Assembly (NCBI GenBank): GCA_013151865.1
Contig: JAADHN010000066.1
Span: 8,311-72,310 of the forward strand
Source: Kiritimatiellota bacterium
GTDB taxonomy: Bacteria; Verrucomicrobiota; Lentisphaeria; Oligosphaerales; JAADHN01
DNA: 64,000 nt
Direction: 5' to 3'
The translations under genes were made by a program, and so were the position numbers. Positions 48,196-63,004 of this stretch are shown piece after piece. Position 1 is the first letter of the stretch; every line of letters begins with the position of its first letter. Under the pieces are notes generated by a model. It did no database searches and was not told where the DNA came from. It saw nothing but the letters and a program-made list of their open reading frames with translations.

Positions 48196-51100
48196 ATGAA
48201 AACGATGCGGACCCTGCTCGAACGCGTTCGGGGCCGGATTCATTGCGCAGTGCACAATGCGGGGCGTCGTTCCCGATTCGGACTGTACGCGTTCGCCGCG
48301 TGCGGCTTCTCGGTCGCGGCGACGCTGGCCGCGGACGTCAACCCCGTGAGCAACGGCGGGTTCGAGGACGTGGGGCCGGACGGACGACCGCGGGACTGGG
48401 AGTACGTGGGCCGCGAGGCCCGGCTGGTTCAAGATGCGCACAGCGGAAAACGGGCCATCCTGCTTCGGCGCACGCCGGAGATCGCAGCACAGAAAGGACT
48501 GGAAACCGGCCTCAATCGCGCTTGGCGGCCGCACTCCGGGGAACGGGGCCGAATGCTGACCGAACGCAAGGGCGGCATCCGTTTCTTTTACAAGGTAGTA
48601 CGGGCGGACGCGGACGCGCAACTTCGCTTCTTTGTGATCCCCATGAACGCGGGGCCCATGGAAAACACGGGGTCACCCCGGGCCGTGTTCGAAGTGCCGA
48701 AAACCTACGCCGGAGACGGCAAGTGGCACTTGGGCATTGTAGGATATGATTTCACGAAAGGCACGGCCTGTCGGTGGGTGCAGGTTTCGCCGCGCATCAT
48801 GGGGCAGGGGACGGCGGAATGGCTCCTGGACGACATCCAATGGGTCCCGAACGCCGGCCCGGTCCCCTCGATTCGCGACCTGCGCGTCTACGAAACACCC
48901 GGGGCGGAAGGCCGATCTTGCACCCTGCGCCTGGTAGTCCGCAATGCCGGGGATCGACCGCTGAAGACCCGGGCGGTGCTCTCGCTTTCCAACGATTTGC
49001 GCGTCCGGGAAAGCTCGACGCGCACGGTGGGACCGTTGGCGGCGCAGGGCACGACCGCCATCGAGTGGACCGTGCTCGGGGCACGCTCGCCGCGCAGCAG
49101 GGCCGCGGTACGATTGACGGCGGGCGAGATCGAGGCCACCCGCTCTGTCCGTTTTGCGCCGAAAATCGTCGAATCTTGGATCGAAACCGGGCGGTTTGTG
49201 CTGTGGCCCGGGGCACGGACACAGGCCACGCTGGTCCTGCGCAACACCGGGACCTGCACTGCCGACGGAATCACCGCCCGCATCGCGGTCGGGGCCGGGT
49301 TGCGCGTTCTCGGCCCGGCGGCGGTCTCAGGGCGAAGCGCCGTCCCGGGAAAGCTCACCCGCATCGGGTTTCAAATCGAGGCGACCGCCCAAACCCCGGT
49401 CACGGAGGTCCGCTGCACATGGCAGAGCGTCGCGGGCGAATGCGGCGAATGCCGAGCGGAACTGGTGGTGGGCGCGCCCGCACCCGCTGCGCCGCAAGAC
49501 GCACCCAAGGACGCCCTGCGACTCACCGGCAGAACAGCGGAAATCATTTTCCCGCGAAACGGATTCGGTTACGGCATCGGCTGGGTGTATGCCCGCCCAT
49601 CCGGGGAACCGATCGGCGTGATCCCCCGGCTGGGCCGCATTGTATCGGGCCCTGCGGACACCGCGGCAGTCCCCCTGTTTGCGGACTCCGCAAAGCGCGG
49701 TCCTCCCGGTCCGTGCCTGGGCGGCAAAACGGACGGAAGCAACAGAGGCGGGAGCAGTCTGACCTTCCTGGTGAAAAACGGCGCCTTGGCGAAGTGCGGA
49801 CTCCCGGAAGGCGTGTCGATCCGATTCGCCGTCCCCGGCTCCGGGGCGAGCGGAGCGGCGGCACGGCTCATTACGGTGACCGTCCGCGCCCGAGTCACCC
49901 GCCCTGGGGCGGTTCGTGCGCTGGATGGGCCGTTTCTCTGCCCGGGCGAAGGCGCGTCGTCGTCGAAGCGCACCGAAGCACTCTTTCCCGGCCTCGAGTG
50001 GTTGCAGGGAGACGAGTACTCGTCTTGGGACACCGACATCGCGTTCGACCACCCGGACCGGTTGCGCAGCGCGCCGCATCCGCACAAGATCACGATCCCT
50101 CTTATGGTCGTGCGCCGAAACCGCGTCGCCACCGGGTTGTTCTGGCATTCCCGCGCGACCTGGAACGACGGTGTGCAACCCCGCGATTTTGCGCCGGATG
50201 AAAGCGCCGTGGACCGACCATGCGCCGTGTTCGCCGCACCGGACCGGTTTGCCGGGCACGCGTCGTCGACCCTCGGGCTTTTCCTCCCGACGATCCCGCA
50301 CTGGATCCAACCGAACGAGCGGGCAGCGGCACGCGCATGGCCGACTCAGGGCGCCGCGCCGTTGCGCATCCGCTTGGTGTACGGCTTCTACGTCAATCCG
50401 GCAAGCGATTCCGTACTCGATGCGGTACTGGATTGGGCACGCGTTTTCGGCTTCCCGGCACCCCGGCGCTCACCTCGCGCCCGCGGGCCGGCGCCGGCGC
50501 CGGGTTCAGTGGACGTATACCGCGGGCCCGGTCTGCCGGACTGGGCACGGGCCGCCGATTTCAGCGAACACTGGTCCCCGCCTGCGCCCGGTCAATGGGT
50601 CGATGAAGTCGAGTGGAGCATGAATGCTTATCTCAAAAGCTTGTGGGACCCGGAGCAGCACGGTTGGTGGAATTACTGGGGAGGACCGGGATTGACGCAT
50701 AAGACCGGCGCGTACCCGGCTTTTCTCTTGGACTGCGTCATCGGCGAACGTTTGACCGACGACCCGGAACTCGGCAAACGCCTGAAGGCACTGCTGGACG
50801 ATGTGCGCGGCCGCGCACCCGAGTCTGTGCCCGGCGGCGACGACATGGGGTTTCGATTCGGCGACCCGACCGCGGCACTTGCGGCATCCGCAGTGCAAGC
50901 CGGGGACATAATGCGTGCCCAACCGGCGGAGGGCGGTTGGCGATTCCGCCCTCGGATCGGCAAAGGCGGCGTATTCCGGGGAAGGGACTACCGGTTGCTC
51001 GGGCGGGACGGGGAGGAAGGAAACGGACTCACAGCGCGCCGGGCCTATAACATGCTGTTCGTGAGCCGGATGACCGGGGATGAAACGTTGCTTTCCGCGG

Positions 51101-52419
51101 GCCTCAAGGCTTTGAGAAGCATGGAGAAGTTCCGAATCCCACGTGCGGCCCAAGTGTGGGAAGTGCCGGTGCATACCCCGGATATCCTGGCTGCCGCCGA
51201 CGCCTGCGAAGCTTACCTGGAAGCCTATCGAATCACCGGCGACAAACAATGGCTGGACCGGGCCGTGTATTGGGAAACCGCCGGCCTGCCCTTCCTCTAT
51301 CTTTGGGACGTGGACGCTTTCCCGTTCCTCCGCTATGCCTCGATTCCCGTATTCGGCGCTACCTGGAAACGCGGCTCCTGGTTTGGGAGGCCCGTGCAAT
51401 GGAACGGATTGCGCTGGGCTTTCGCCGCGCAGAAACTCGCGGAAGTCGATTCCTCCCTGCCCTGGCGGATGCTCGCCGCCGGCGTGACCATTTCCGCCAT
51501 GTATCAACAGGGGTCGGACCCCGAAAGCAAGAGTTTCGCCCTTTGGCCGGACAGCATCAGCGCGGAAGACGCACGGAAATCGGCATGGGTCTTTCCCCCC
51601 GTTCACATCCTCGAAAACGTGTACAAACTCATGGGGTACGAACCGCGCCCGACTACGGTGGCGGTCCCGGCCGGGGCGGGGAAAATCCGCATCGATGCCT
51701 GCGGGCGTATCGGAGCGCCGCAATACGCCGGTGGGGTGCTGCGGTTCGCACTTTCGGCCCCGCCGCCGTTGCCGACGCAGGTTCTGGTGATCGGAATATC
51801 GAGCCCCACGGAAGTGCTCGTGGACGGGAAAGCCCTGCCCCGGGCCGACACGGCGGAAAGACGTGTAAGAACTGCCGCGTGGTGGACGTACGACAGGGAT
51901 GCGCGCCTGCTCCGGGTGCGCCCCAACGTGACCGGGAAACACACGATTGCGCTGCGCTCGGTGCGGTGGCGGGCAGGCCGAGTCCTGCCTCAAGTCCAGA
52001 CGCGATTGGATTTCGATTTCGATTCCGGACGCCAGGGCTGGCGTCCCGCGCACGACATCGCTGCGGCAGACGCCGCGGACGGCGTGCTGGACATCACCGT
52101 GAACGGACCCGATCCGTACCTGGTCCGCCCCATGTGCCGGATCGACGGGAACATGATCGCGAGAATCCATGTGCGTATGGCCGTGGACGGTGGAAACCGG
52201 GCGCAATTCTACTGGACCACGGCGAAAGCCCCGGCCATGTCCGAAGCCCGGGCCGCCTGGGTCGCCGTGAACGCGGACGGCAGGATGCACGACTATTCGT
52301 TCGATGTGGGCGCCCACCCTTTGTGGCGGGGGCAAATCATCACGGCCGTACGACTGGATCCGACGAACGGGGTGAAACAGGCCCGCGCCCGCATCGACTT
52401 CGTTCGCGGCGATCCCTGA
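48196..52419 (+). CDS. Very large secreted hypothetical protein (CBM-like N-terminus, Ig-like repeats, probable (alpha/alpha)6 barrel, C-terminal beta-sandwich)
   Basis: Signal peptide, NGGFED, Ig-like LVVRNAG/LVLRNTG, AYLEAYRITGDKQWLDRA (alpha-toroid signature) and C-terminal WRGQIITAVRLDP. Confidence 0.65.
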   Translation: MKTMRTLLERVRGRIHCAVHNAGRRSRFGLYAFAACGFSVAATLAADVNPVSNGGFEDVGPDGRPRDWEYVGREARLVQDAHSGKRAILLRRTPEIAAQKGLETGLNRAWRPHSGERGRMLTERKGGIRFFYKVVRADADAQLRFFVIPMNAGPMENTGSPRAVFEVPKTYAGDGKWHLGIVGYDFTKGTACRWVQVSPRIMGQGTAEWLLDDIQWVPNAGPVPSIRDLRVYETPGAEGRSCTLRLVVRNAGDRPLKTRAVLSLSNDLRVRESSTRTVGPLAAQGTTAIEWTVLGARSPRSRAAVRLTAGEIEATRSVRFAPKIVESWIETGRFVLWPGARTQATLVLRNTGTCTADGITARIAVGAGLRVLGPAAVSGRSAVPGKLTRIGFQIEATAQTPVTEVRCTWQSVAGECGECRAELVVGAPAPAAPQDAPKDALRLTGRTAEIIFPRNGFGYGIGWVYARPSGEPIGVIPRLGRIVSGPADTAAVPLFADSAKRGPPGPCLGGKTDGSNRGGSSLTFLVKNGALAKCGLPEGVSIRFAVPGSGASGAAARLITVTVRARVTRPGAVRALDGPFLCPGEGASSSKRTEALFPGLEWLQGDEYSSWDTDIAFDHPDRLRSAPHPHKITIPLMVVRRNRVATGLFWHSRATWNDGVQPRDFAPDESAVDRPCAVFAAPDRFAGHASSTLGLFLPTIPHWIQPNERAAARAWPTQGAAPLRIRLVYGFYVNPASDSVLDAVLDWARVFGFPAPRRSPRARGPAPAPGSVDVYRGPGLPDWARAADFSEHWSPPAPGQWVDEVEWSMNAYLKSLWDPEQHGWWNYWGGPGLTHKTGAYPAFLLDCVIGERLTDDPELGKRLKALLDDVRGRAPESVPGGDDMGFRFGDPTAALAASAVQAGDIMRAQPAEGGWRFRPRIGKGGVFRGRDYRLLGRDGEEGNGLTARRAYNMLFVSRMTGDETLLSAGLKALRSMEKFRIPRAAQVWEVPVHTPDILAAADACEAYLEAYRITGDKQWLDRAVYWETAGLPFLYLWDVDAFPFLRYASIPVFGATWKRGSWFGRPVQWNGLRWAFAAQKLAEVDSSLPWRMLAAGVTISAMYQQGSDPESKSFALWPDSISAEDARKSAWVFPPVHILENVYKLMGYEPRPTTVAVPAGAGKIRIDACGRIGAPQYAGGVLRFALSAPPPLPTQVLVIGISSPTEVLVDGKALPRADTAERRVRTAAWWTYDRDARLLRVRPNVTGKHTIALRSVRWRAGRVLPQVQTRLDFDFDSGRQGWRPAHDIAAADAADGVLDITVNGPDPYLVRPMCRIDGNMIARIHVRMAVDGGNRAQFYWTTAKAPAMSEARAAWVAVNADGRMHDYSFDVGAHPLWRGQIITAVRLDPTNGVKQARARIDFVRGDP

Positions 52420-52427
52420 CCGTCCCT

Positions 52428-52631
52428 CAGAACTCGGTAACGCTGTAAAGCAGAATGCCCTCTTTTTTTTGTCACAGTCACCGCCAGTGTGGGCGACTAC
52501 TTTACAGAAGATGACGCTAAGCTCAGATTCGCGCGAAACTGTAACGCAGTCGCCCACACCCATTCCCGGGAGTCCGTCCAAAAAAGGGAATCCAACTTTA
52601 CAGACCTCCAAGCTCAATCTACTGAGGTCTG
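52428..52631. mobile_element. MITE copy 1 (204 bp)
   Basis: Left end CAGAACTCGGTA; the right end reverse-complements to CAGACCTCAGTA (10/12 match). Flanked by GTCCCT/GTCCAT, an imperfect 6-bp TSD. Near-identical to 59534-59742. Confidence 0.85.
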
Positions 52632-52750
52632 GTCCATGGATGGGACGCGCCCCGGGCCGAATCTGGAGGATTCTGTCAGGAATATTGGGTTTGTTTGGAA
52701 CATGTGGAAATGCTCGGTGTCGGAATGGTTGTTACAAGGAGATTTCGTTT

Positions 52751-53206
52751 ATGATCCTGGGAACGCGGCCAGTCCGTACCATGCCGCTGTTGGTGTTGGG
52801 GTTGCTTGCCTGTGTCCTGGTCAACGCAGGGGGACACCCACGCGTCGTGGTTTGCTACGGAATGGATGGCCATGTTTCATTGGAATCGACTTCCGGGGCA
52901 CGCTGCAGCCAGGTTTCCGAGGTGATCGTTCGCCCGACTGCCGCGCCGCAGAGAAATGTGTCTCTCACCGCGGCCGCCGGTCATTGCGCGCCTTGCGTTG
53001 ATATCCCCATTCCGTTCAGTGGATTTGAACAACAGCCTTTTCTCACGCAGGGCCCTTCCGTACCAAGCCTTGTTCCGACCGGCCCGGTCTCGGCTGATGC
53101 TTCTCCCGTGTTCACATCACTCCCTGCCGTCCGTCTTGTTCCCCCATCTTCCCTCGACTTCAGTCTGGCGCTCACGTCCCTTCGCACCGTCATCCTTTTG
53201 ATCTGA
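52751..53206 (+). CDS. Small exported Cys/His-containing leader protein with a Pro/Ser-rich tail ending LRTVILLI
   Basis: AAGGAG RBS, signal/TM helix, VVCYGMDGHVSLE and HCAPCVDIPI motifs. First gene of the MITE-bracketed operon. Confidence 0.7.
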   Translation: MILGTRPVRTMPLLVLGLLACVLVNAGGHPRVVVCYGMDGHVSLESTSGARCSQVSEVIVRPTAAPQRNVSLTAAAGHCAPCVDIPIPFSGFEQQPFLTQGPSVPSLVPTGPVSADASPVFTSLPAVRLVPPSSLDFSLALTSLRTVILLI

Positions 53207-53376
53207 CTTCCCCCCTCTCTTCCCGGTCGTCCGTATCCCCCTGAGCTGCCGACCTTGCGATGGCAGCACACTCTTGGCACTCTTGGCATCCCCGGCTTTG
53301 CCCACGCCCGCTGGCGTGTGTAGGTCGCATCCAACCTCCCAGAACGAGAGAATCTTAACAGACGCAGGCCAGCACC

Positions 53377-55335
53377 ATGTCTCAAAAGTTCCTGATATTC
53401 GTGACCGTTCTGGCAGTCGCAGCCCTGACGCTGCTGCTTGTCCTGCTGGCTGTCAGAGAAGAGCAAAGTACGAAAAGGATCATTGTCGAACGGGACAAAC
53501 GCATCGGTGAGAATGTCGTCGCCACCTTTACCGGCGGCGAGGTCACGACCAGCGAACTGCGCAAATTCATCAATGAACGAACCCGACGATCGGGCGAACA
53601 CGCTGCTTGCGACAAACACAGCTACGATCATTCCAAATGTTCGCCCGACGAAAAATGCGAGAACCATCCCCTCAATTCGGTCGAATCCTATCGGGCCCTG
53701 CTCAGGCAATTGGTCATGGACAAGATGGTTGAACGCTGGATCCGTGAAAAAGGGATGCTGTCTCGAAAACAGGTTAAACACCGATTAAAGCATCTGGTTG
53801 AAGAAATCAACTTGGGCGCCCTCGCGGGGGAAATGCACGCCGACAAGGTGAAACCCGACAAAATCGAGATGCGCCAGTACTATGAGGAACACAAAGATGA
53901 GTACAAGAATCGTCCTTTCAGCGAAGTGGAAGAGGAAATCGAGGGAATCCTGGTCGCTCGGAAACAGAGTGAGTTCATTCCAAAGTATATCGAGGAACTG
54001 AAAGCCAATGCGGTCATTGAGAGGAACTATGACCTGATTAAAGTCCCGGAACCGACCGAGGCGGAAATCCGAGCTTACTACGACCAGCACAGCAAGGAAT
54101 ATGTCCGCGCAGAGTTCCTGCGCATTCAAATTCTGCGAATCGGAGCCGAAGACGAAAAAGCGGGTCGGGCAAAAGCCGAAAAGGCCCTGGCCAAGTTGCG
54201 CGCCGGGGCAGACTTCGAAGAGGTGGCCCGAGACTTTGCCGACGACAAGACCGCGCCCATCGAGCTGGTGGAGCGCGGCCGGAAAAGCAAACGGTTCGAG
54301 GAACGAGTGTTTCGCTATTACGCCGGCGAACTGACGCCGATTTTCAAAGACGGCGGATTCTTCTATATCGTGAAGATCCTTGAACGGGAAGGAAAGAAAA
54401 AGAAGTCGCTTCCCGAGGTATTGGCGGAGGTTACCGCAGCCGTTCGTCGACAGAAAGAAGAAGAGAAATTCAAGTATAACAAGTATGACGCTCTTTTCAG
54501 CGTGCACGGCAAACGTTTTACGGTCGAAGAATTCCAGCAAGAGTTCTCGGAACTCTCCCCTGAAGAACAGAGGCAATTTGCCAGCTTCAAGGCCAAAAAG
54601 AACCTGCTCGATCAACTCATTGTCCGGCAATTGCTGATGGAAAAAGCCGAGGACAAAGGCGTGGAAGCTGAGAAGCGGAAAGAGATCGAGGAACTCAAGA
54701 AACGTGCCCTCCAGCAGATGCTGCATAAGGAAGAAGTGGACGAAAAAATCGAGGTCAGCGAAAAAGAGGCCAGAGAGCTTTATGAAAAACGGAAGAACGT
54801 CCTGATGGAACCGGCTAAAGCCAAGGTCAGCGTGATCCGGATCGGTACCGGGTTCAGCGCAGACGAACGCAAGCGGGCGCGGGAGAAAATCGAGGCGGCC
54901 CAAAAGAAACTCAACGCCGGGGCTGATTTTGCCGAAGTGGCCAAGGAGTACTCCGAGGATTGGACCGCCACGCGCGGCGGAGAAATGGATCGGTGGATCT
55001 ATGAAGGCGCCGGTCATCTCGGGGAAATCTACGAGCACGGATTTCACCGGTACGTTTTCGCTCTGCAACCCGGTGAGACGAGCGACTTCTTCGAGTTCCG
55101 CAACAACTATTGGATCGTCAAAATGCGAGAACACCGCCCGAGCCGCCGGCAGACGTTCGAGGAAGCGCGGCCCACGATCGAAGCATATATCAAGGCCCTC
55201 AAGCACGAAGAGCGCATGTTCGAACTGCAGAACGAACTGTTGGAGAAGTCGCGACTGGTCATCCGGGACTTTGTCTTGAGCCGGATGCTTCAGGCCGAAT
55301 CCACCGGCCATGAACACGAACGGGCACTGTACTGA
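53377..55335 (+). CDS. Membrane-anchored PrsA/SurA-like foldase with two parvulin (PpiC)-like domains and His/Cys insertions
   Basis: N-terminal TM helix, GADFEEVARDFADD, GADFAEVAKEYSED..T..RGG and LQPGETS motifs. Insert EHAACDKHSYDHSKCSPDEKCENH. Confidence 0.8.
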   Translation: MSQKFLIFVTVLAVAALTLLLVLLAVREEQSTKRIIVERDKRIGENVVATFTGGEVTTSELRKFINERTRRSGEHAACDKHSYDHSKCSPDEKCENHPLNSVESYRALLRQLVMDKMVERWIREKGMLSRKQVKHRLKHLVEEINLGALAGEMHADKVKPDKIEMRQYYEEHKDEYKNRPFSEVEEEIEGILVARKQSEFIPKYIEELKANAVIERNYDLIKVPEPTEAEIRAYYDQHSKEYVRAEFLRIQILRIGAEDEKAGRAKAEKALAKLRAGADFEEVARDFADDKTAPIELVERGRKSKRFEERVFRYYAGELTPIFKDGGFFYIVKILEREGKKKKSLPEVLAEVTAAVRRQKEEEKFKYNKYDALFSVHGKRFTVEEFQQEFSELSPEEQRQFASFKAKKNLLDQLIVRQLLMEKAEDKGVEAEKRKEIEELKKRALQQMLHKEEVDEKIEVSEKEARELYEKRKNVLMEPAKAKVSVIRIGTGFSADERKRAREKIEAAQKKLNAGADFAEVAKEYSEDWTATRGGEMDRWIYEGAGHLGEIYEHGFHRYVFALQPGETSDFFEFRNNYWIVKMREHRPSRRQTFEEARPTIEAYIKALKHEERMFELQNELLEKSRLVIRDFVLSRMLQAESTGHEHERALY

Positions 55336-55371
55336 CCGAGCACATACTGCTGTTGAAAGGAGAATGCCGAC

Positions 55372-56904
55372 GTGGAAAGAAAAGAGCAAACGGTCCTGAT
55401 CAGCATCGGCGCCAACGGATTACTCATTTCCCTGCGTTTTCTGCTCGCCTTCGTGTCCGGAAGTCTGGCCCTGAAAGCCAATGCCTGGCACTCCCTGGCC
55501 GACGTGTTCGTGCTGGGCGTCGTTTACATTGGCTTGTTTGTGGCACGACAGCAGGACCAGCGTTACGCCGGGATCATCGCATGGATGGAGAACATCGTCG
55601 CCATCTTCGTCTCGATCTTCATCTTTTGGATGGGCTTCGAGCTGTTCGGAGAGGCCGTGGCGGGAGAGGCCGTGGAACTGGCCTACGTCGTCCCATCAGC
55701 AATCGGTGCGTTTCTGGGCGTATGCATTACTTACTTCATGGGGCGGTACATGCTCTTCGTGGGGCACGCGACCGGCTCGCCCAGCCTGATTGCCGCGGGG
55801 TCTCATGCTCGAATGGACATGTTCTGCTCTACGGCGGTGCTGCTGGGGCTGGTGGGAAGCATTTTCGGCCTGGTCGGCCTCGATAAGGTTGCCGCCACCA
55901 TTGTGGTGGTCTTCATCTTCATGGCGGCCATCGAAATCTTCATGGCCAACGTCCGTGCCTTGCTCAGCGGTCGCGCCGAACTCGCCCATGAGCACGCGCA
56001 CGGCCTGAACAAACCCGGCAAGCTGGTCACGGCGGGCATCGCCATACTGATCGCGGCCGGGTACCTCGGCTCGGGAGTCTACTACGTCCAGCCGGACGAA
56101 CAGGCGGTGGTGCGCCGGCTCGGCAAGATCCTCGAACGCCCCTTCGGTCCCGGCCTGCATTATCGCCTGCCGTACCCGATCGACCGGGCGAACATGGTCC
56201 GTACCGGCACGGTGCGCGAAGTCGGGACCCGGAAACGCCTGCTGCTGAGCGGCGACGAGAACCTCGTGGAGGTTGACGTATCCGTGCACTATCGCGTGTC
56301 CGATCCGGTGAAATACCTCCTCAAAGCGGCCGCACCCGACACCCTTGTGCGCGAAGCGGCTCAGGCCAGCGTGCGCAACGCCGTGGGGCATCGACGAATC
56401 GACGATCTGTTGACCACCGGCCGCGAAGACGTTCTGGCAGAGGTCCGGAGGACACTCCAAGAAGAACTCGACAGGAGCGACACGGGTATCGAAGTGGTCG
56501 GTGTCCTCCTCTTGGAACTGCGCCCCCCAGAGGACGTCGTCGATGCCTTCTATGACGTAGCCAGTGCACGGGAAGACAAAGCCACCTACATCAACGAAGC
56601 CCATTCGGCACGTAATGCCTTGGTGCCCAAAGCACGGGGCGAAGCCGCCGAGAAAATCCTCGCCGCAGAAGCTTACAGAGAACAAAAAGTGCAGTACGCC
56701 GCGGGCGAAGCAGGTCGTTTTCTCAGCAAGCTCGAAGAATACGCCAAAGCCCGCGACATCACTGAAGTCCGTTTGTATCTCGAAGCCATGGAAAAAGTCT
56801 TGCCGGGCGTCAGAAAATTCCTGGTGGACGGTGACGTCGAGACGGGAGAGACCGACCTCTGGTTTGTTGGTAAGGACGCCGGAAACCTGTTTGGCACGAA
56901 ATAA
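55372..56904 (+). CDS. Cation diffusion facilitator (CDF) TM domain fused to an HflK-like SPFH domain
   Basis: GSLALKANAWHSLAD (TM2), SPSLIAAGSHARMD (TM5), linker HEHAHG, then YYVQPDEQAVVRRLG...PGLHYRLPYPID...LLSGDENLV...PKARGEA...RLYLEAMEKVL. Confidence 0.88.
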   Translation: MERKEQTVLISIGANGLLISLRFLLAFVSGSLALKANAWHSLADVFVLGVVYIGLFVARQQDQRYAGIIAWMENIVAIFVSIFIFWMGFELFGEAVAGEAVELAYVVPSAIGAFLGVCITYFMGRYMLFVGHATGSPSLIAAGSHARMDMFCSTAVLLGLVGSIFGLVGLDKVAATIVVVFIFMAAIEIFMANVRALLSGRAELAHEHAHGLNKPGKLVTAGIAILIAAGYLGSGVYYVQPDEQAVVRRLGKILERPFGPGLHYRLPYPIDRANMVRTGTVREVGTRKRLLLSGDENLVEVDVSVHYRVSDPVKYLLKAAAPDTLVREAAQASVRNAVGHRRIDDLLTTGREDVLAEVRRTLQEELDRSDTGIEVVGVLLLELRPPEDVVDAFYDVASAREDKATYINEAHSARNALVPKARGEAAEKILAAEAYREQKVQYAAGEAGRFLSKLEEYAKARDITEVRLYLEAMEKVLPGVRKFLVDGDVETGETDLWFVGKDAGNLFGTK

Positions 56905-56937
56905 CCCAGACACATTCGCAACGAAAGGAAAAAGCCG

Positions 56938-57912
56938 ATGGACGGAACAAACGGAAAAGCAACCTGGTTCAAACTGGCGGCGGGCCTGGGGGTGTTCTTC
57001 TTCGCTCTCCTGATCAGCAACCTTGTACTGTTTGTGGTCGATACAACCGAATATGCCGTGATCACGCAGTTCGGTCGCCCGGTGCGGACAATCCTGGAGC
57101 CGGGACTCCACTGGAAACTGCCCGAACCCATCCAGCTCTTGCGGCGCTACGACAACCGGCTTCAGGTTTACGAAGCGGGACAAGTCGAGTTTCTCACTCA
57201 AGACAAGAAAAGTATCGTCGTGGACTATTACGCCTCCTGGAAGATCACCGACCCGTTGGCGTTCCTCAAGACCGTGCGCGACAAGATCGGCGCAGAAGCT
57301 CGCCTGTCGGACGTGGTCTCGTCCGTACTGGGTGTGGGCGTGGGGCAATTCGAACTGAGCGATCTGATCAACACGGACCCCGCCCGCATGAAGCTGCACG
57401 AAATGCTGGCCGCCGTGACCCAGCGCTGCAACGAGCAAACCAGCCGGTACGGCATCCAGATCGTCAACGTGGAAATGCGCACCCTCAATTTCCCGGAGAA
57501 AAATAAACTGAGCGTGTTTCGGCGTATGAAAGCCGAACGGGAACAGATGGCCAGGAAGTACCGGTCCGAGGGAAGCGAAGAGGCGGCCAAGATCCGCGCG
57601 GAAGCCCGCAAAGAGGAGAAAACGATCCTGTCCGAAGCCTACCGAAAAGCGGAAACAATCAAAGGCGAAGGAGATGCCGAGGCAATCCGTATTTATGCCC
57701 AGGCCTTTCAGAAAGATCCGGAGTTCTACCGTTTCATCAGAACTCTCGCGGCGTACGACAAGATCATAGACGACAAAACGACGGCCATTCTACCGGCCGA
57801 CTCGGACCTGCTGAAGTACTTCGCCCGGGGGAGAAGCAGCCCCGCGAAAAACCGGGGCGGAAGCAAGCGCGCCATGGTCCCGAACAGACGCCCGGAAGGA
57901 GCCGAAAAATGA
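56938..57912 (+). CDS. hflC: HflC-like SPFH protein
   Basis: AVITQFGRP, PGLHWKLP, FLTQDKK, RMKAERE.MA..YRSEG and GEGDAEAIRIYA.AF.KDPEFY.FIRTL.AY motifs. Confidence 0.92.
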   Translation: MDGTNGKATWFKLAAGLGVFFFALLISNLVLFVVDTTEYAVITQFGRPVRTILEPGLHWKLPEPIQLLRRYDNRLQVYEAGQVEFLTQDKKSIVVDYYASWKITDPLAFLKTVRDKIGAEARLSDVVSSVLGVGVGQFELSDLINTDPARMKLHEMLAAVTQRCNEQTSRYGIQIVNVEMRTLNFPEKNKLSVFRRMKAEREQMARKYRSEGSEEAAKIRAEARKEEKTILSEAYRKAETIKGEGDAEAIRIYAQAFQKDPEFYRFIRTLAAYDKIIDDKTTAILPADSDLLKYFARGRSSPAKNRGGSKRAMVPNRRPEGAEK

Positions 57913-58895
57913 GCGAGATCGAACGCCACGACAACCCATGGGACGATATTCGGCGAGCTTTCGGCCATCTGAAACCGACCGTGCTTGTGCCGATCGCCGC
58001 GCTGGTCCTGGGCGCCGTCTACCTGGGCACGGGCGTCTACATCGTCAATCCCGGCGAGCAAGGGGTGGTCAAACGGTTCGGGCGAGTCATCGCGACTGTG
58101 GATGAAGGCGCCCACTATCGACTCCCGTGGCCGGTGGACACGGTCGAAGTCGTCAATGTGAGCAAGGTGCGGCGCGCAGACATCGGCATGGTCCTTCCCG
58201 AACACGAACATCCGGCGTTTCTGCCGGAAAAACTGCAACTGCTGACCGGGGACGAGAACCTCATCAACGTCGAAGCAATCATCCACTACAAAATCAAAGA
58301 TCCGGCCCGTTTCCTCTATCGCACTAACTTCGGCGAGGAAAGATTGCTGCACAACGCCGTCGGCTCGGCCCTGGTTGAACTCATCGGTCAAATGGCGGTG
58401 GACGACATCCTTACCACGGAGAAGATCAGTGCCCAGGCAAGAATCCTACGGAAAGCACAGAAGGTCCTCGATGAATACGAAAGCGGTCTGCAGATCAGCG
58501 CCTTCAATATTCGAGCCATCGTGCCGCCGGAGGATGTGGCGGACGCCTTTCGGGACGTCCAGACCGCCAAGGAGGATCGCGAGCAGGTGATCAACCAGGC
58601 CAGAGGCTTTGCCAACAGCATCCTTCCCGAAGCCCGGGGACGGGCCCGGGAGTGGACCAGCGAGGCCGAAGGCTACCGCACCGAGGTGGTCAACCGCGCC
58701 GAGGGGGACGCACAGAACTTCGAGGCAGTGCTGGCCGAGTACCAGAACGACGCCCGGATGTACAGCGAGGACATTACCCGCTATCGACTCTACCTCGAAA
58801 CCATGGAAAAAATCCTCCCACGCGTCAAGAAGTACGTTCTTCGGGCGCGTGCCGGCGGCGAAAAAGTGAACTTGCGCTTCGTCAACAGGGAATAG
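57909..58895 (+). CDS. hflK: Second HflK-like SPFH protein
   Basis: ATGA overlap with hflC. YIVNPGEQGVVKRFG, HYRLPWPVD, LLTGDENLI, AFRDVQTAKED, PEARGRA and RLYLETMEKIL motifs. Confidence 0.9.
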   Translation: MSEIERHDNPWDDIRRAFGHLKPTVLVPIAALVLGAVYLGTGVYIVNPGEQGVVKRFGRVIATVDEGAHYRLPWPVDTVEVVNVSKVRRADIGMVLPEHEHPAFLPEKLQLLTGDENLINVEAIIHYKIKDPARFLYRTNFGEERLLHNAVGSALVELIGQMAVDDILTTEKISAQARILRKAQKVLDEYESGLQISAFNIRAIVPPEDVADAFRDVQTAKEDREQVINQARGFANSILPEARGRAREWTSEAEGYRTEVVNRAEGDAQNFEAVLAEYQNDARMYSEDITRYRLYLETMEKILPRVKKYVLRARAGGEKVNLRFVNRE

Positions 58896-58922
58896 GCGTT
58901 TCAAAGGACCGGAGAGATCGAG

Positions 58923-59096
58923 ATGCTGGAAATAGTGCAACTGGTCGCAATGGTCGTGCTTCTTGTGGCGATGACGGGCATGCTCGTATTGGTTGCCCGT
59001 CTTGCGCGGGTCGTGGAACGCTGGGAACGACGGCTTTCCCCAGCGTCGAGACAAACCGGTGATCGAGAAACGAAAGGAGGTGATCCGAGTGGATAA
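58923..59096 (+). CDS. Small single-TM protein (57 aa), not in the ORF track
   Basis: GGAGAG RBS; MLEIVQLVAMVVLLVAMTGMLVLVARLARVVERWERRLSPASRQTGDRETKGGDPSG*. Its stop overlaps the next start. Confidence 0.65.
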   Translation: MLEIVQLVAMVVLLVAMTGMLVLVARLARVVERWERRLSPASRQTGDRETKGGDPSG

Positions 59097-59244
59097 AGTG
59101 GGTGCAATCCTGGACGGCGTTGCCACGCTTATCGTGGGCGTCGGCGTACTGGTGGTCCTTCTCAAAACGGGCGGCTTGGTCGCTGCTTTGGGAGGACGGC
59201 TCAACCCCGAAAACAAAGAAGAAAACGCAACCAGCCAGAGTTGA
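59089..59244 (+). CDS. Small single-TM protein (51 aa), paralogue of 59279-59410
   Basis: Near-perfect SD AAAGGAGGTGA followed by GTG; MDKVGAILDGVATLIVGVGVLVVLLKTGGLVAALGGRLNPENKEENATSQS*. Confidence 0.75.
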   Translation: MDKVGAILDGVATLIVGVGVLVVLLKTGGLVAALGGRLNPENKEENATSQS

Positions 59245-59278
59245 ACATGGAGTCCTGACTTGAAAGGAGACAGGTAAA

Positions 59279-59410
59279 ATGAGCAATGTGGGAGAAATCC
59301 TCAGTAATGTGGCAACGCTGCTGGTCTCGATCGGGGCCGTGGTCGTGCTGTTCAAAACCGCGGGCCTCATCACGGCGCTTTCCGAACGCATCAAGGAGTG
59401 GAAGGAATAG
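59279..59410 (+). CDS. Small single-TM protein (43 aa), not in the ORF track
   Basis: AAAGGAG RBS; MSNVGEILSNVATLLVSIGAVVVLFKTAGLITALSERIKEWKE*. Aligns without gaps to the preceding peptide. Confidence 0.75.
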   Translation: MSNVGEILSNVATLLVSIGAVVVLFKTAGLITALSERIKEWKE

Positions 59411-59533
59411 CCCGTCGGCTGTTTCATTCGACCGTCAAGGGCAGTCGCTCCGCAGCAACCTGCGGGGCGCTGCCCTTTCCGCTTCTGGGCAAAGTCGACC
59501 TCTGTGATCCACAACCCCCGGCAAATCGTGCTC

Positions 59534-59742
59534 CAGAACTCGGTAACGCGGTAAAGCAGAATGCCCTCTCCTTTTTTTGTCGCAGTCACCGCCAGCGTGG
59601 GCGACTACTTTACAGAAGATGACGCTTCCAAGCTCAAATTCGCGCGAAACTGTAAGGCAGTCGCCCACACCCATTCCCGGGAATCCGTCCAAAAAAGGGA
59701 ATCCAACTTTACAGACCTCCAAGCTCAATCTACTGAGGTCTG
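59534..59742. mobile_element. MITE copy 2 (209 bp)
   Basis: Same TIRs and orientation as copy 1. Flanked by a perfect 6-bp TSD GTGCTC (59528-59533 and 59743-59748). Confidence 0.88.
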
Positions 59743-60304
59743 GTGCTCATGTCCGATGCGAGGCATGGCAACTCGGATGATCCCATCTGGGTTGCTTCTC
59801 GCAACAATTCACTCGCCGAGCCGAACGAATCGACCTCCCGAAACGACCGTACGCGGACAGTGACGACGCCCACACGCAACTCCTCGCCCTCGGCGTCCGA
59901 CAGGCGCCAGCCACTCCGGCGGGGGGACCGCCTGATCGGCGAGCCGGCGGAGCAGAAAAAACGTCAGCGCGGAAACCAAGACCACAGGCCTGCACCGTGG
60001 CAGGCGCCGGGTGTGAACGCCACGCTTGTTTTGTACCAAAACCGTTACCTGCGCGACCCCACCTCACGGTATGGAAGAAAACGCAGTAAGGCATTGGTTG
60101 GTGAATAGATAAGACAACAAGTCTTCTACCTTTTGCCGGGGCCGGGCCGTTGCCGAAAGTGGTACACTTTTAACTTGGCGGTGAGACCGGGGGGCGCCAC
60201 GTCCTCTCCACGCTCCGGCCCCACGCAAAAATGCCGGACAGGGCACCGCGCCACCGCCACTCCGAAAACGGAAAACGACGCACCTTTTTTGGCAATCGCC
60301 GCTT

Positions 60305-60352
60305 GCATACCTCGGCATCCGTGGTATTATAACATCGACTGCCGAGGTATGC
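60305..60352 (+). promoter_or_regulatory. Probable PadR autoregulatory operator(s) overlapping a sigma70-like promoter
   Basis: Perfect 13-bp inverted repeat GCATACCTCGGCA...TGCCGAGGTATGC, which can also be read as two tandem palindromic sites. It overlaps TTGCAT...TATTAT, about 40 bp before padR. Confidence 0.6.
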
Positions 60353-60392
60353 GTGGACGACCTGCGGAGTTCGCAACCGGGAGACCGCAACC

Positions 60393-60731
60393 ATGGAATT
60401 CACACCCGAATTGATCAAAGGAACCGTAGTGCCCATCGTGCTGAAGCTCCTGGATGAGCGGCCCATGTACGGATACGAAATCATTAAGCTCGTGAACCGG
60501 CGAACCGAGAACGCGTTCCAGTGGAAGGAGGGGACGCTGTACCCGTGGCTGCACCGCCTGGAAGCAGACGGCCTGGTCCGCGGCGAATGGCAGGTCGCGC
60601 CGTCGGGTCGCCGCCGCAAGTACTACACCCTCACTCGACGAGGGCGTACCGCCATGGTGAGCAAACTCGAGGAATGGCGGGCACTCTCGACCGCGGTGAA
60701 CACGTTACTCTTGGGGCCGGTTACAACATGA
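60393..60731 (+). CDS. PadR family transcriptional regulator (short subfamily 2)
   Basis: LIKGT, MYGYEI, EGTLYPWLHRLEADGLV and RRRKYYTLT..G motifs. Confidence 0.92.
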   Translation: MEFTPELIKGTVVPIVLKLLDERPMYGYEIIKLVNRRTENAFQWKEGTLYPWLHRLEADGLVRGEWQVAPSGRRRKYYTLTRRGRTAMVSKLEEWRALSTAVNTLLLGPVTT

Positions 60732-60788
60732 GGCGACAGCATTGTCGGACCAATCCGTCCGATTATTCTTCCCGTCGGGAGGTCTCCC

Positions 60789-62996
60789 ATGAATGAACCG
60801 AATCGTGAGGGAATCCTGGACCGCCTGACCGAGCCCCTGCAGGACGACCCCGAGCTGCGGCTCGACGTCCGGGCCGAGCTGGCAGCACACCTCGAGGACA
60901 AGGCGTGCGAACTCCGCGAACAGGGGACCGCCGCGGAAGCGGCGCGCAACGAAGCGTTGCGTGCTCTCGGCGCCCCCGCGGAGATCGGCGCCGACCTGCT
61001 GGTTGCCAACCGACCGCGCATGAAACGTCGTGCCCGCATTCGCTTGGCGCTGCGCGCCTTGGCCGTGCCTCTGGCCATCGTTGCCGCACTCTGGTGCGCG
61101 GGCATGGGACAACTGCTGGATTATGCCGCCTCGGTTGACATGCTGACCGCAAATGCGATGACACCGCCTTGGTTACGCCGGAAAGGGCTCCGGGCAGGGC
61201 CGAAGCCCTTCACCCCGGAGCAAGAACTTGTCCTCCACGGCGACCGTTCCCGGAAAGGGCGCGCAACACAACAGCGGGCAATCTGGGAACGGTGGCCGGA
61301 CAACCTGACGTATCTGCGCAATTACGCCACGTATCTTCTCGTCGATTACGGACAACTCGGTGAATCACCGACGGAGCGTTTGAAGAAGTTCGAATCCGAG
61401 ATGCGTATGGCCATGCGCAAAGATCCGGAGAACGCGCGGTACCATCACCTTCTTGCCGCCAAAATGCTCGAACAGGCCGCGGAGATCAAAAAGGGACCCA
61501 CCGGAAAAGCGAAGGCGGACCGCCGATCTCCCCGATACCGCCTCGAAGTCAAAGACCGGGACCTGCTCGACCGGGCCATGGCGGAATTCCGGAAAGGCCT
61601 CGCGAAACCCATGCTCCGGCGGGGTGCGGCCGAGATGCTGAGCGAGCGTCTCCGGATCCTGGGACCGCCGCGCCGTCGACTGGACCAGATTCGTCGCATC
61701 GCGCTGGCCGCCGCGGTGCTTCTCCCCGATCTGGCTGTCTATCGAAACCTGGCCCGCGCTGCCGGACCGTACGCGGGATTGCTGGTGGCGGAACACCGAA
61801 AAGACGACGCGGCCCCATTCCTCGACGCCTGGGAAAAACTGGCGCTGCAACTCAACGACGATGCCTTCACTCTCATCGACGAACTGGTCGTCCTTGCCGT
61901 CATCGACCTCGGTTCGTCCCAAGCCGCGGAAGTCTGTGAACGCGCCGGGACACCGGACCGAGCCGAGGCAATCCGACACCGAGCGGAGGCCCTTGGCGCG
62001 GTCATCCGCGACTGGCGCCGAAGCGTTCAGGACAAGACACACGGCGAGCAACTGAAACACCAACTCCGTCAGCATGCCGGCATCCTGAGTTCTCTGCTGC
62101 TGCCCGCCCTGGGCAGCGAGTCTCTCTCGGATATGGACGCGCTGGCTCCGGACCGTCTGCTCGATTACACGCTGGCGGAGGAAGGTCTCGCCGGGGCGAT
62201 CAGCCTGACGCTCCTGGCGCTGATGCTGGGAGCGCTGGGCGCCGCACTCTGGCGGCGCTTGCTCGACCGCAAGCGACCGCCCCCGCTGTACCTGTTGCCG
62301 GATGCCCGCTCGCTGGCCGGGATCGTTCTGTTCGGTATTGCGGCTCCGGCCTTGGTGTACGTGATCCTGACGCACTGGACTTCCTTCGGCGGCCGGGAAT
62401 ACTCGTTACCCTATCAGTGGCCGAGATTCATGGCGCAGGCCACGGTCCTCCTGGCCGTCGTGACTGCATCGTGCGGGGGCCTGGCCGCCAGTTGGGCGCG
62501 CCGGCGCTGTGAAGCGTTGGGCTTGCCTTGTCCCCGCCCTTGGCCAACGAAGCGGATGCGGCGTGTTTTCACTGCAAGCGTCTTCCTGCTTTTCCTCGTC
62601 AGCCTTCTCCCCGCCGAGGCGCTCAGCGGCACGGAGTTCGATTGGGCGACGATCACGGTCGTCGTTCTCTCCGCGCTCGTGGGCGTCATGCTGTTTCTTC
62701 GGGGGGCCGTTGCACTTGCGATGGCGCTTTGCGCACCGAGGGACCAAGCGTTCTACCGCGGCACGCTGGCCCGATCTCTGGTGCCCATGCTCGCCGTGGC
62801 CGTGATGGCGTGGAGCGCCGTCAGCCGTCCCTGGTTGATTCGTCAGGAAGGAGAATTGATCCGCCGGGACACGCTGATGAGCACTCCGTCCGAGGGGCTC
62901 ATCGGCTTTACCAGCGTCGAAGCACACTTGGCCCGACGGTTGAAACAGGGGGTGGAGGAAGCGGCAAAACAGCTCGGGTCGAGGCGGGGTCGATGA
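60789..62996 (+). CDS. PadR-associated membrane protein with an N-terminal permease-prefix-like domain, a large helical extracytoplasmic domain and C-terminal TM helices
   Basis: VRAELAAHLEDK...EALRALGAPAEIGADL is typical of proteins encoded after subfamily-2 padR. One N-terminal TM and several C-terminal TM helices. Confidence 0.72.
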   Translation: MNEPNREGILDRLTEPLQDDPELRLDVRAELAAHLEDKACELREQGTAAEAARNEALRALGAPAEIGADLLVANRPRMKRRARIRLALRALAVPLAIVAALWCAGMGQLLDYAASVDMLTANAMTPPWLRRKGLRAGPKPFTPEQELVLHGDRSRKGRATQQRAIWERWPDNLTYLRNYATYLLVDYGQLGESPTERLKKFESEMRMAMRKDPENARYHHLLAAKMLEQAAEIKKGPTGKAKADRRSPRYRLEVKDRDLLDRAMAEFRKGLAKPMLRRGAAEMLSERLRILGPPRRRLDQIRRIALAAAVLLPDLAVYRNLARAAGPYAGLLVAEHRKDDAAPFLDAWEKLALQLNDDAFTLIDELVVLAVIDLGSSQAAEVCERAGTPDRAEAIRHRAEALGAVIRDWRRSVQDKTHGEQLKHQLRQHAGILSSLLLPALGSESLSDMDALAPDRLLDYTLAEEGLAGAISLTLLALMLGALGAALWRRLLDRKRPPPLYLLPDARSLAGIVLFGIAAPALVYVILTHWTSFGGREYSLPYQWPRFMAQATVLLAVVTASCGGLAASWARRRCEALGLPCPRPWPTKRMRRVFTASVFLLFLVSLLPAEALSGTEFDWATITVVVLSALVGVMLFLRGAVALAMALCAPRDQAFYRGTLARSLVPMLAVAVMAWSAVSRPWLIRQEGELIRRDTLMSTPSEGLIGFTSVEAHLARRLKQGVEEAAKQLGSRRGR

Positions 62997-63004
62997 GCGC
63001 TGAC

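Follow-up and report, generated by a model that had tools for sequence, protein, structure and literature searches.

HflK and HflC are bacterial SPFH proteins, whose cellular role is a long-standing question; to our knowledge, the protease FtsH is the sole established partner of HflK/C. In the E. coli FtsH-HflK/HflC assembly (7vhp, 7wi3 and 9cz1), the genes hflK and hflC are adjacent, and each protein has a single N-terminal transmembrane (TM) helix, an extracytoplasmic SPFH domain and a coiled coil. In eukaryotes, stomatin, podocin and MEC-2 regulate channels and transporters, a case of functional coupling between an SPFH scaffold and a protein of ion transport. The exporter YiiP/FieF belongs to the cation diffusion facilitators (CDF), proteins with both termini in the cytoplasm, and combines a six-TM Cation_efflux domain and a tetrahedral transport site with a cytoplasmic C-terminal domain (ZT_dimer). 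Here we analyze a gene cluster at positions 52751-59410 of a 64,000-nt stretch of a Kiritimatiellota genome (contig JAADHN010000066.1; the whole stretch is called the window below, and all coordinates are positions within it), in which a CDF-type exporter and HflK are encoded as one polypeptide, followed by HflC and a second, unfused HflK (HflK2). The coupling in stomatin, podocin and MEC-2 is non-covalent and homo-oligomeric, whereas the module of the window has a covalent fusion in what would be a hetero-oligomeric HflK/C-type set. It resembles the E. coli system in its adjacent genes, its equivalog-level scores and, as far as its topology can be predicted, the build of its SPFH proteins, but it has three SPFH genes (K-C-K) instead of two and adds a dedicated foldase gene and a six-TM metal exporter. 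An earlier note on this DNA had proposed a metal-handling system built around the fusion; that a conserved system of this kind exists, with the exporter covalently joined to an HflK/HflC-type scaffold, is borne out by the domain architecture, the gene order and the metal-linked neighborhoods reported here.

A cation exporter and HflK in one polypeptide

Open reading frames (ORFs) were taken from the window's ORF list and families were scored with Pfam and NCBIfam. The gene at 55372-56904 (+ strand) encodes a protein of 510 aa, in which Pfam places Cation_efflux (PF01545) at residues 9-198 (87.9 bits, cut-off 26.6) and Band_7 at residues 239-411. NCBIfam assigns the N-terminal part to the CDF family (TIGR01297, 98.0 bits, cut-off 82.35) and the C-terminal part to HflK (TIGR01933, 236.6 bits, cut-off 159.4). 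Hydropathy analysis gives seven TM segments, six of them in the CDF part and one at residues 218-236, the HflK TM helix. Because a CDF with both ends in the cytoplasm is followed by one further TM helix, we infer that the SPFH part lies outside the membrane, as in HflK. When a profile of 58 fusions was compared with the PDB, residues 11-212 aligned to the membrane domain of YiiP/FieF (5vrf and 3h90, E about 1e-10) and residues 219-488 aligned to residues 79-345 of E. coli HflK (7vhp, E 2e-77). The linker between the two parts (residues 192-217) consists of 26 residues, is net positive, contains three His and is predicted to be cytoplasmic. The exporter and this linker thus take the place of the first 78 residues of E. 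coli HflK, a segment that is missing from the solved model (PMC12048511).

The transport site of the exporter is conserved in most fusions. The window protein aligned to E. coli FieF, whose transport-site residues we take to be D45, D49, H153 and D157, has H40, D44, H145 and D149 at these positions, that is, H-D-H-D against D-D-H-D in FieF; an H-D-H-D site is typical of Zn-type CDFs. Among 81 fusions, the tetrad is H-D-H-D in 70, H-G-H-H in 6, H-D-H-N in 2, H-D-H-E in 1 and Q-D-H-D in 1, with 1 sequence truncated. The cytoplasmic C-terminal domain of YiiP/FieF (ZT_dimer) has no Pfam match at E<=0.01 in the fusion and is replaced by the 26-residue His-rich linker and HflK. The CDF part is therefore best described as a CDF membrane domain without its C-terminal domain, and not as a canonical full-length CDF. 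ZitB and CzcD are further CDF exporters akin to YiiP/FieF.

The fusion is by no means confined to the window. At least 827 relatives at E<=1e-10 were found among 8000 candidates scored, and both Pfam domains are carried by 119 of the 120 best relatives. The linker and the junction are conserved among the fusions. All public names given for the best relatives label them as HflK, with "FtsH protease activity modulator HflK" as the commonest form. As the fused protein goes by the name "HflK" alone in public sources, we considered whether it might be an artefact, either two genes joined by an error of assembly or gene calling, or an accident of one lineage without functional coupling. This explanation is scarcely credible and is refuted by a single frame of about 510 aa in all of the 80 loci described below, by the conserved linker and junction, and by two further exporter families that are fused to HflK in the same way.

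Conservation of the gene order

The grouping of genes that had been read from the window as one system recurs in many genomes. A scan of one genome per species gave 579 relatives of the fusion, of which the 80 best loci were examined; these were not de-duplicated and some are near-identical. The ORFs of the 80 loci were searched with the window proteins by phmmer, with E<1e-30 as the threshold for a foldase orthologue. The loci come from isolates, metagenome-assembled genomes (MAGs) and one complete plasmid, and they span Victivallaceae, Omnitrophota, many Clostridia, Desulfosporosinus, Pelosinus, Synergistaceae, Thermoguttaceae, Desulfobacterota, Chloroflexota and Actinomycetota, as well as Rokubacteria, Verrucomicrobiota, Alphaproteobacteria, a gammaproteobacterial MAG, Spirochaetales, WWE3, Eisenbacteria, Gemmatimonadota and Poribacteria. 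HflC lies directly 3' of the fusion in 78 of the 80 loci, the other two loci stopping at the fusion, and HflK2 comes next in 73, all seven misses having less than 1.9 kb of contig left. A foldase orthologue is adjacent in 62 loci, upstream in 41 and downstream in 21. No foldase was found in 18 loci: contig ends truncate 8 of them, and the remaining 10 belong to one clade (L071-L075, L077-L079, L081 and L082). The recurrence of the four-gene core across phyla is more than chance. Cultivable carriers of the operon are found in Desulfosporosinus, Flavonifractor, Blautia, Nitratireductor, Chelativorans and Tianweitania, and it is also carried on an Aquibium plasmid.

A variant of the module is seen in Desulfobacterota (L040, L042, L043, L044, L049 and L080), where the CDF site is H-G-H-H, HflK2 has a long His/Gly-rich insert and a "PCC" motif replaces the His/Cys insert of the foldase. 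In this variant a conserved 108-aa ORF without a family lies upstream, and the two-component system is of the sigma-54 type (L040).

HflC, the second HflK and their phylogeny

HflC (56938-57912, + strand, 324 aa, one N-terminal TM helix; TIGR01932, 208.4 bits, cut-off 134.4) is encoded between the two HflK genes, and HflK2 follows at 57909-58895 (+ strand, 328 aa; TIGR01933, 237.8 bits, cut-off 159.4), with its TM helix at residues 25-43. The fusion, HflC and HflK2 all score above the equivalog cut-offs. In a quick IQ-TREE phylogeny of 64 sequences with SH-aLRT support, the HflC sequences of the module form one clade (99) that excludes E. coli HflC and the canonical HflC of Nitratireductor. 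The fused HflK parts and HflK2 are sister groups with matching internal subclades, and canonical HflKs fall outside them with a support of 88, which is not strong. The module sequences therefore lie apart from the canonical ones, strongly for HflC and weakly for HflK, and all three SPFH genes of the module have a matching subclade structure. The HflK part of a P1B ATPase fusion, described next, is on a long branch and its placement is unsure.

The same triplet with unrelated metal exporters

The genome of the window has 10 SPFH matches, which make up three triplets and one single gene (contig C12). The second triplet (contig C24; L001 5878-11031, - strand) starts with a 1055-aa P1B ATPase-HflK fusion, followed by HflC and HflK; the fusion scores 558.6 bits with the heavy-metal P1B model TIGR01525, 455.5 bits with the Cd/Zn subfamily and 165.1 bits with HflK, and no foldase orthologue was found near this triplet. 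The third triplet (contig C82; L002 6270-10479, - strand) has a first protein of 652 aa and then an HflC-like and an HflK-like gene. This 652-aa protein consists of a multi-TM N-terminal part of about 300 aa without a family match and a divergent HflK-like part (104 bits, under the cut-off). A sulfatase gene is situated upstream of this type of triplet, which also occurs in a Victivallaceae genome (L086, G005:C20).

To see which domains accompany HflK in long proteins, a large protein collection was searched with HflK2, and 103 matches of 575-2000 aa at E<=1e-15 were obtained among 6399 candidates. By a hand count of Pfam assignments, 59 of these 103 combine the PF03773 permease (SO_0444-type) with Band_7, 42 combine a P-type ATPase with Band_7, one combines a CDF with Band_7, and one has Band_7 only. 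Four fusions were also checked with NCBIfam: in the two PF03773 cases, an SO_0444 family Cu/Zn efflux transporter (386 and 361 bits, cut-off 300) is joined to HflK, and in the two ATPase cases, a heavy-metal P1B ATPase is. The Band_7-only protein (P0281, 579 aa) is by NCBIfam a single-chain HflK-HflC fusion, with HflK at 14-293 and HflC at 322-451. SO_0444 itself is reported to be required for growth under ZnSO4 or CuCl2 stress (PMC3219624).

The SO_0444-HflK fusion, a protein of about 700-750 aa, was examined in 22 metagenome loci (L100-L121). HflC and HflK come next in 11 of them, and in 6 others HflC is followed by the contig end. Of the remaining five, one has about 2 kb downstream that lacks an HflC match, three stop at the fusion, and in one the permease part is all that is present. 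None of the 22 loci gave a foldase match. An extra HflC gene lies about 1.2 kb upstream in L102, L104, L107, L109 and L115. In a sample of 301 genomes from the class of genome G001, the SO_0444-HflK query gave no match at E<=1e-60. A relative within the phylum has an HflK-like match (G067:C2:320445-321449) inside a 1012-aa open frame, which may be another large exporter-HflK fusion.

The triplet of a metal exporter fused to HflK, HflC and HflK thus recurs with three unrelated exporter families, namely CDF, P1B ATPase and SO_0444 permease, which widens the reading that had been drawn from the CDF fusion. The SO_0444 permeases and the P1B Zn/Cd ATPases share with the CDF the N-terminal fusion to HflK and the HflC and HflK genes that come after it, although their folds and energy coupling are unrelated to those of a CDF, and, unlike the CDF module, the triplets examined have no foldase orthologue found beside them.

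Metal-linked neighborhoods

For the 80 loci, the ORFs lying up to 5 kb from the module were grouped into clusters, which were named by Pfam or NCBIfam. With near-identical loci included, OmpR-type response regulators are found in 38 of the 80 loci, histidine kinases in 34, P1B ATPases in 20, M23 peptidases in 19, ArsR/SmtB metalloregulators in 16, PCuAC copper chaperones in 11 and HtrA/DegP proteases in 9. The two-component genes are mostly on the same strand and directly upstream of the module. All three neighboring P1B ATPases that were tested pass the cut-off of the Cd/Zn IB2 subfamily, their best named match being ZntA-like. Two further apparent neighbor clusters, u299 and u225, proved to be antisense shadows of the P1B ATPase gene, within which they lie, and were discarded. 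In E. coli K-12 (4103000-4111000, L099), the envelope-stress genes cpxRA and cpxP have the CDF gene fieF as a direct neighbor; this adjacency may loosely echo the Cpx/Bae-like two-component systems next to the module, or is perhaps a coincidence.

The metal context is most explicit on a conjugative plasmid of Aquibium oceanicum, where the gene order is response regulator, kinase, fusion (annotated as hflK), HflC, hflK and peptidylprolyl isomerase, and then heavy-metal P-type ATPase, PCuAC, SCO, DsbB and thioredoxin. The module of this plasmid stands within a Cu/metal island in which CopC, CopD, Nramp and additional PCuAC genes are encoded as well.

A leader family of heavy-metal efflux operons

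The first gene of the operon in the window (52751-53206, + strand) encodes a small Cys/His protein of 151 aa with one N-terminal hydrophobic segment, predicted to be secreted or membrane-tethered, and is preceded by an AAGGAG ribosome-binding site. This leader has no Pfam or NCBIfam family match, and a search against plasmids gave no match either. When searched exhaustively with HMMER, it has 222 cluster representatives at E<=1e-3, which all measure about 140-155 aa and align over the full length. C35, G40, C52, C79, C82 and D84 are invariant in this family, and H41 and a C-terminal hydrophobic tail are nearly so. Members were found in 5 of the 301 genomes sampled from the phylum. At all five other copies, in four other genomes, the leader is the first gene of a CusA/CzcA-type RND operon that encodes an outer-membrane factor, a CzcB-type adaptor and a CusA/CzcA-family pump (1008-1503 bits, cut-off 701). 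The loci L093-L096 hold such RND operons, and in one case a CzcD-like CDF fragment follows at the locus edge. These observations indicate that the leader belongs to a new Cys4 leader family of heavy-metal efflux operons. In operon position, the only ground of the comparison, it is like CzcI, which we take to be a small periplasmic protein heading czc operons: both would be small secreted proteins encoded by the first gene of heavy-metal efflux operons, but the leader of the window heads a CDF-HflK operon and not an RND operon.

The transport site, the neighbors, the leader family and the plasmid island all point to metal, and the metal link indicated by them stands independently of the His/Cys motifs considered below.

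A parvulin foldase and the His/Cys motifs

The foldase gene (53377-55335, + strand) encodes 652 aa with an N-terminal TM helix (residues 6-24), a His/Cys insert (75-97) and two units, each of a helical chaperone region and a parvulin domain. Pfam finds Rotamase_2 in two PpiC-type stretches (99.7 bits, cut-off 27) and a weak SurA_N match. PpiD, SurA and PrsA are the nearest known proteins, with PpiC-type parvulin domains and SurA-N-like helical regions, and the N-terminal membrane anchor is as in PpiD. The module foldase differs from them by its two parvulin units, by its genetic tie to the HflK triplet and by an insert of 23 residues with four His and three Cys after the anchor; it also scores under every equivalog cut-off, with 72.3 bits for PpiD (NF008054, cut-off 493) and 20.7 bits for SurA (NF008038, cut-off 394), and far under that of PrsA. 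It thus represents a distinct, new parvulin family with a His/Cys insert.

The earlier note had given weight to His/Cys strings in the leader (HCAPC and DGH), the foldase (CENH and GHEHE), the linker of the fusion (HEHAHG) and HflK2 (PEHEHP), and all of them are present in the window proteins. Their conservation differs, however. The leader positions are invariant in the family; two or more His are found in the linker of 61 of 81 fusions, with poly-His in several Clostridia, and in the predicted extracytoplasmic loop of HflK2 (PE-H-x-H, residues 96-102) in 64 of 72 sequences, all eight exceptions being in the clade without a foldase. The foldase insert, with the pattern H-x2-C-x2-H-x2-D/E-H-x2-C-x3-5-C-E-x-H, occurs in 35 of 62 orthologues, essentially in lineages with the foldase upstream, and is absent where the foldase is downstream. 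GHEHE, in contrast, is in an unconserved C-terminal tail of the foldase (mean column conservation 0.12). Of the claim that a dedicated metal-binding foldase belongs to the system, dedication is upheld by its adjacency in most loci, while the His/Cys insert is conserved in about half of the orthologues.

Small ORFs and the cassette

Three micro-membrane proteins had been proposed at the 3' end of the operon, and two of them hold. The ORFs sm2 (59089-59244, + strand, 51 aa, single TM, GTG start) and sm3 (59279-59410, + strand, 43 aa, single TM) are paralogues that are kept in the same order 3' of HflK2 in two Victivallaceae loci, L004 and L070 (sm2, E 1e-24 and 2e-21; sm3, E about 1e-27 in both), and have the ribosome-binding sites AAGGAGG and AAGGAGA, respectively. 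The third, sm1 (58923-59096, + strand, 57 aa, one hydrophobic segment), is doubtful as a gene: homologues are lacking both in the 80 loci and in the rest of the genome, its ribosome-binding site is weak, and it overlaps the start of sm2. AAGGAG-like sites are also found 5' of the leader, the fusion, HflC and HflK2. All genes in 52751-59410 are on the + strand and closely spaced, with gaps of -4 to +170 nt.

The operon lies in a cassette with a GC content of 0.52-0.60, against 0.64-0.70 in both flanks. It is bracketed by two copies of a dispersed repeat of about 210 nt that resembles a miniature inverted-repeat transposable element (MITE). The left copy (52421..52636, + strand) is outside the operon proper, and its stretch may include the promoter region; the right copy (59527..59747, + strand) closes the low-GC cassette. 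The two copies (52421-52636 and 59527-59744 in the comparison) are in direct orientation and 88-95% identical in pieces. Genome-wide, the repeat has 33 matches, several of them at contig ends, and 25 full-length copies have an imperfect 11-nt terminal inverted repeat. Rfam gave no match for the repeat or anywhere in 50000-64000, and no tRNA was found within the window. A full-length fusion is present in 2 of the 301 genomes sampled from the phylum, this genome included, and the other 22 matches consist of the HflK part only. With its low GC, its flanking MITE-like repeats and this rarity in the phylum, the cassette looks acquired, probably as a horizontally transferred copy of a widespread module.

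Of the seven flanking ORFs scanned upstream of the cassette, five are without a family; the other two are a glycyl-radical enzyme and an ORF with a weak match to glycoside hydrolases. On the other side, 3' of the right-hand repeat, 60393-62996 encodes a PadR-family regulator (112 aa) and a 735-aa multi-TM protein without a Pfam family; neither is conserved beside the module elsewhere. PADLOC models of defense systems gave 0 families for all eight proteins of the operon.

Discussion

The cluster is best accounted for as a scaffolded module for metal export and envelope protection, a reading to which we give a probability of roughly 60%. The domain architecture, the conserved gene order, the transport site, the His/Cys motifs, the metal neighborhoods and the repeated fusions to HflK are the observations it starts from. 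The core would be a CDF-type divalent-cation/H+ exporter that carries a His-rich linker and an entire HflK in place of its C-terminal domain. Like HflK and HflC in E. coli, the HflK part of the fusion, HflC and the free HflK2 would assemble together, forming an SPFH ring that is anchored in the cytoplasmic membrane and stands on its outer face, and the exporter would thereby be held in or at this ring; both the assembly and the position of the CDF domain are inferred from the homology with HflK/C of known structure. The metal would most likely be Zn2+ or an ion similar to it (Cd, Co). Captured from the cytoplasm at the His-rich linker, it would pass through the H-D-H-D site and be released beside the HflK2 His loop, the His/Cys insert that the foldase carries and, in this lineage, the CzcI-like Cys/His leader in the periplasm. 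Under such a scheme, in which the topology, the substrate and the hand-over of metal to foldase or leader are all presumptive, the module would couple metal efflux to local metal handling and to the protection or refolding of envelope proteins.

Several observations weigh against this reading. The six fusions with an H-G-H-H tetrad, all of one Desulfobacterota clade, depart from the expected site, and a CDF without its cytoplasmic domain could suffer in dimerization. The clade of 10 loci without a foldase (Eisenbacteria/Gemmatimonadota-like) also lacks any of the His motifs, and several of its loci have 6-8 kb on both sides yet no foldase; therefore, neither the foldase nor the His motifs are essential to the core. 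The neighbor counts are uncorrected for near-identical loci. Only one of six kinases tested passes the heavy-metal-sensor cut-off, the other five being most like BaeS, CpxA, EnvZ or WalK but under those cut-offs, and we do not call the kinases of the linked two-component systems as a group "heavy-metal sensor kinases". The module of the window has neither a two-component system nor an ArsR regulator or a P1B gene beside it. Furthermore, the relation to FtsH leaves room for a different explanation.

The triplet may still be an FtsH-HflK/C complex, with the exporters placed inside the FtsH enclosure and their abundance or quality set by the protease. FtsH could, for example, engage the His-rich linker when it is free of metal and be blocked when metal is bound, and the foldase could serve the extracytoplasmic side of such a quality-control station. 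Certain membrane transporters, MgtA among them, are degraded by FtsH. The HflK and HflC parts of the module pass the equivalog cut-offs and align to the solved, FtsH-bound HflK. It had been pointed out that no ftsH gene occurs in the window, which is correct, as the single Peptidase_M41 match of the genome is on contig C91; as an argument for independence from FtsH, however, this absence has no weight, for no ftsH is annotated in the 8 kb around hflKC in E. coli K-12 either, and ftsH is within the 8-kb flanks in only 1 of the 80 loci. As to separate housekeeping genes, ftsH is thus present elsewhere, but no unfused hflK-hflC pair was found in this genome, which leaves the triplets as possible partners of FtsH. 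The earlier note had named sole hflK/hflC copies that co-purify with FtsH as grounds against its own proposal, and the first half of this applies here. A comparison of five other genomes gave a mixed picture: Nitratireductor has the module and a separate adjacent pair scoring as HflK and HflC, the Victivallaceae MAG has the module, a second triplet and single genes, Flavonifractor and Desulfosporosinus each have the module and single SPFH genes, and WWE3 (0.9 Mb) has the three genes of the module only. In three of the five (Flavonifractor, Desulfosporosinus and WWE3), the module is therefore the only HflK/C-like set. Chelativorans, like Nitratireductor, appears to possess a canonical hflKC pair in addition. 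Because of this, and because there is no other hflKC pair in the genome of the window, coupling to FtsH remains compatible with the data.

The residues at the HflK-FtsH interface may also bear on this question. Qiao et al. are quoted in PMC12048511 for a contact at HflK Arg191; by our own count, residue 191 of K-12 HflK is not an Arg, so that the mapping of the residue is uncertain. At the column of E. coli R193, 76 of 81 fused HflK parts and none of 72 HflK2 sequences have Arg, with an ambiguous mapping of the published contact, and at the R185 column, Arg is found in 21 of 81 fused HflK parts and 60 of 72 HflK2 sequences. The fused HflK may thus have retained the FtsH contact, subject to this uncertain mapping; the lack of the R193-column Arg in HflK2 would speak against control by FtsH. 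The separation of the module HflC from canonical HflC (and, less firmly, of HflK), the coexistence of the module with an apparently canonical pair in Nitratireductor, its travel on a conjugative plasmid within a metal island, and the rarity of an adjacent ftsH also disfavor control by FtsH, and the permanent tethering of a substrate to a stable scaffold subunit would be an odd form of regulation. On balance, we consider control by FtsH unlikely, although it is the chief alternative.

It is also conceivable, but a good deal less probable, that, as in the boldest proposal of the earlier note, the SPFH dome encloses an extracytoplasmic space of high metal content that is fed by the tethered exporters, where the His/Cys foldase would load or refold exported metalloproteins, or where metal would be kept off the rest of the envelope. 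The known structures of HflK/C and of other SPFH assemblies are closed or nearly closed membrane domes (PMC12048511). The predicted His motifs are on both faces, in the cytoplasmic linker as well as in the extracytoplasmic HflK2 loop and foldase insert, and DsbB, thioredoxin and HtrA among the neighbors point to the maturation of envelope proteins. The module is also found in Gram-positive bacteria and in bacteria of the candidate phyla radiation, and it is cells lacking an outer membrane that would gain most from an enclosed space. However, the placement of the foldase or its clients inside the dome is an assumption, and one clade does without both the foldase and the His motifs. Moreover, the neighbors are of the resistance type (Zn/Cd ATPases, ArsR/SmtB and the leader family of CzcCBA-type operons) and not metalloenzyme genes.

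Scaffolded metal export with envelope protection, control by FtsH and an enclosed metal chamber overlap in part and are not fully exclusive. A more general form of the scaffold reading, in which HflK/C-type SPFH rings serve at large as scaffolds of heavy-metal exporters and make up, on the outward side of the membrane, an enclosure for export and metal handling that is independent of FtsH, with a metal-binding foldase serving the CDF version, is one that we put forward only tentatively.

Judged by titles and abstracts, with subscription journals and supplements outside the search, no published description of an exporter-HflK fusion or of this operon was found. As all public names of the fused protein are HflK labels, the transporter is invisible to surveys of metal resistance. 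If functional, it would be a CDF that works without the regulatory cytoplasmic domain. Because the same solution is met with three unrelated exporter families, a real functional coupling of SPFH rings and metal efflux can be argued, and the findings suggest that scaffolds organize heavy-metal export at the bacterial cell envelope. The operon thereby offers a concrete handle on the role of bacterial SPFH proteins, as here the scaffold has its client built into the same polypeptide as HflK.

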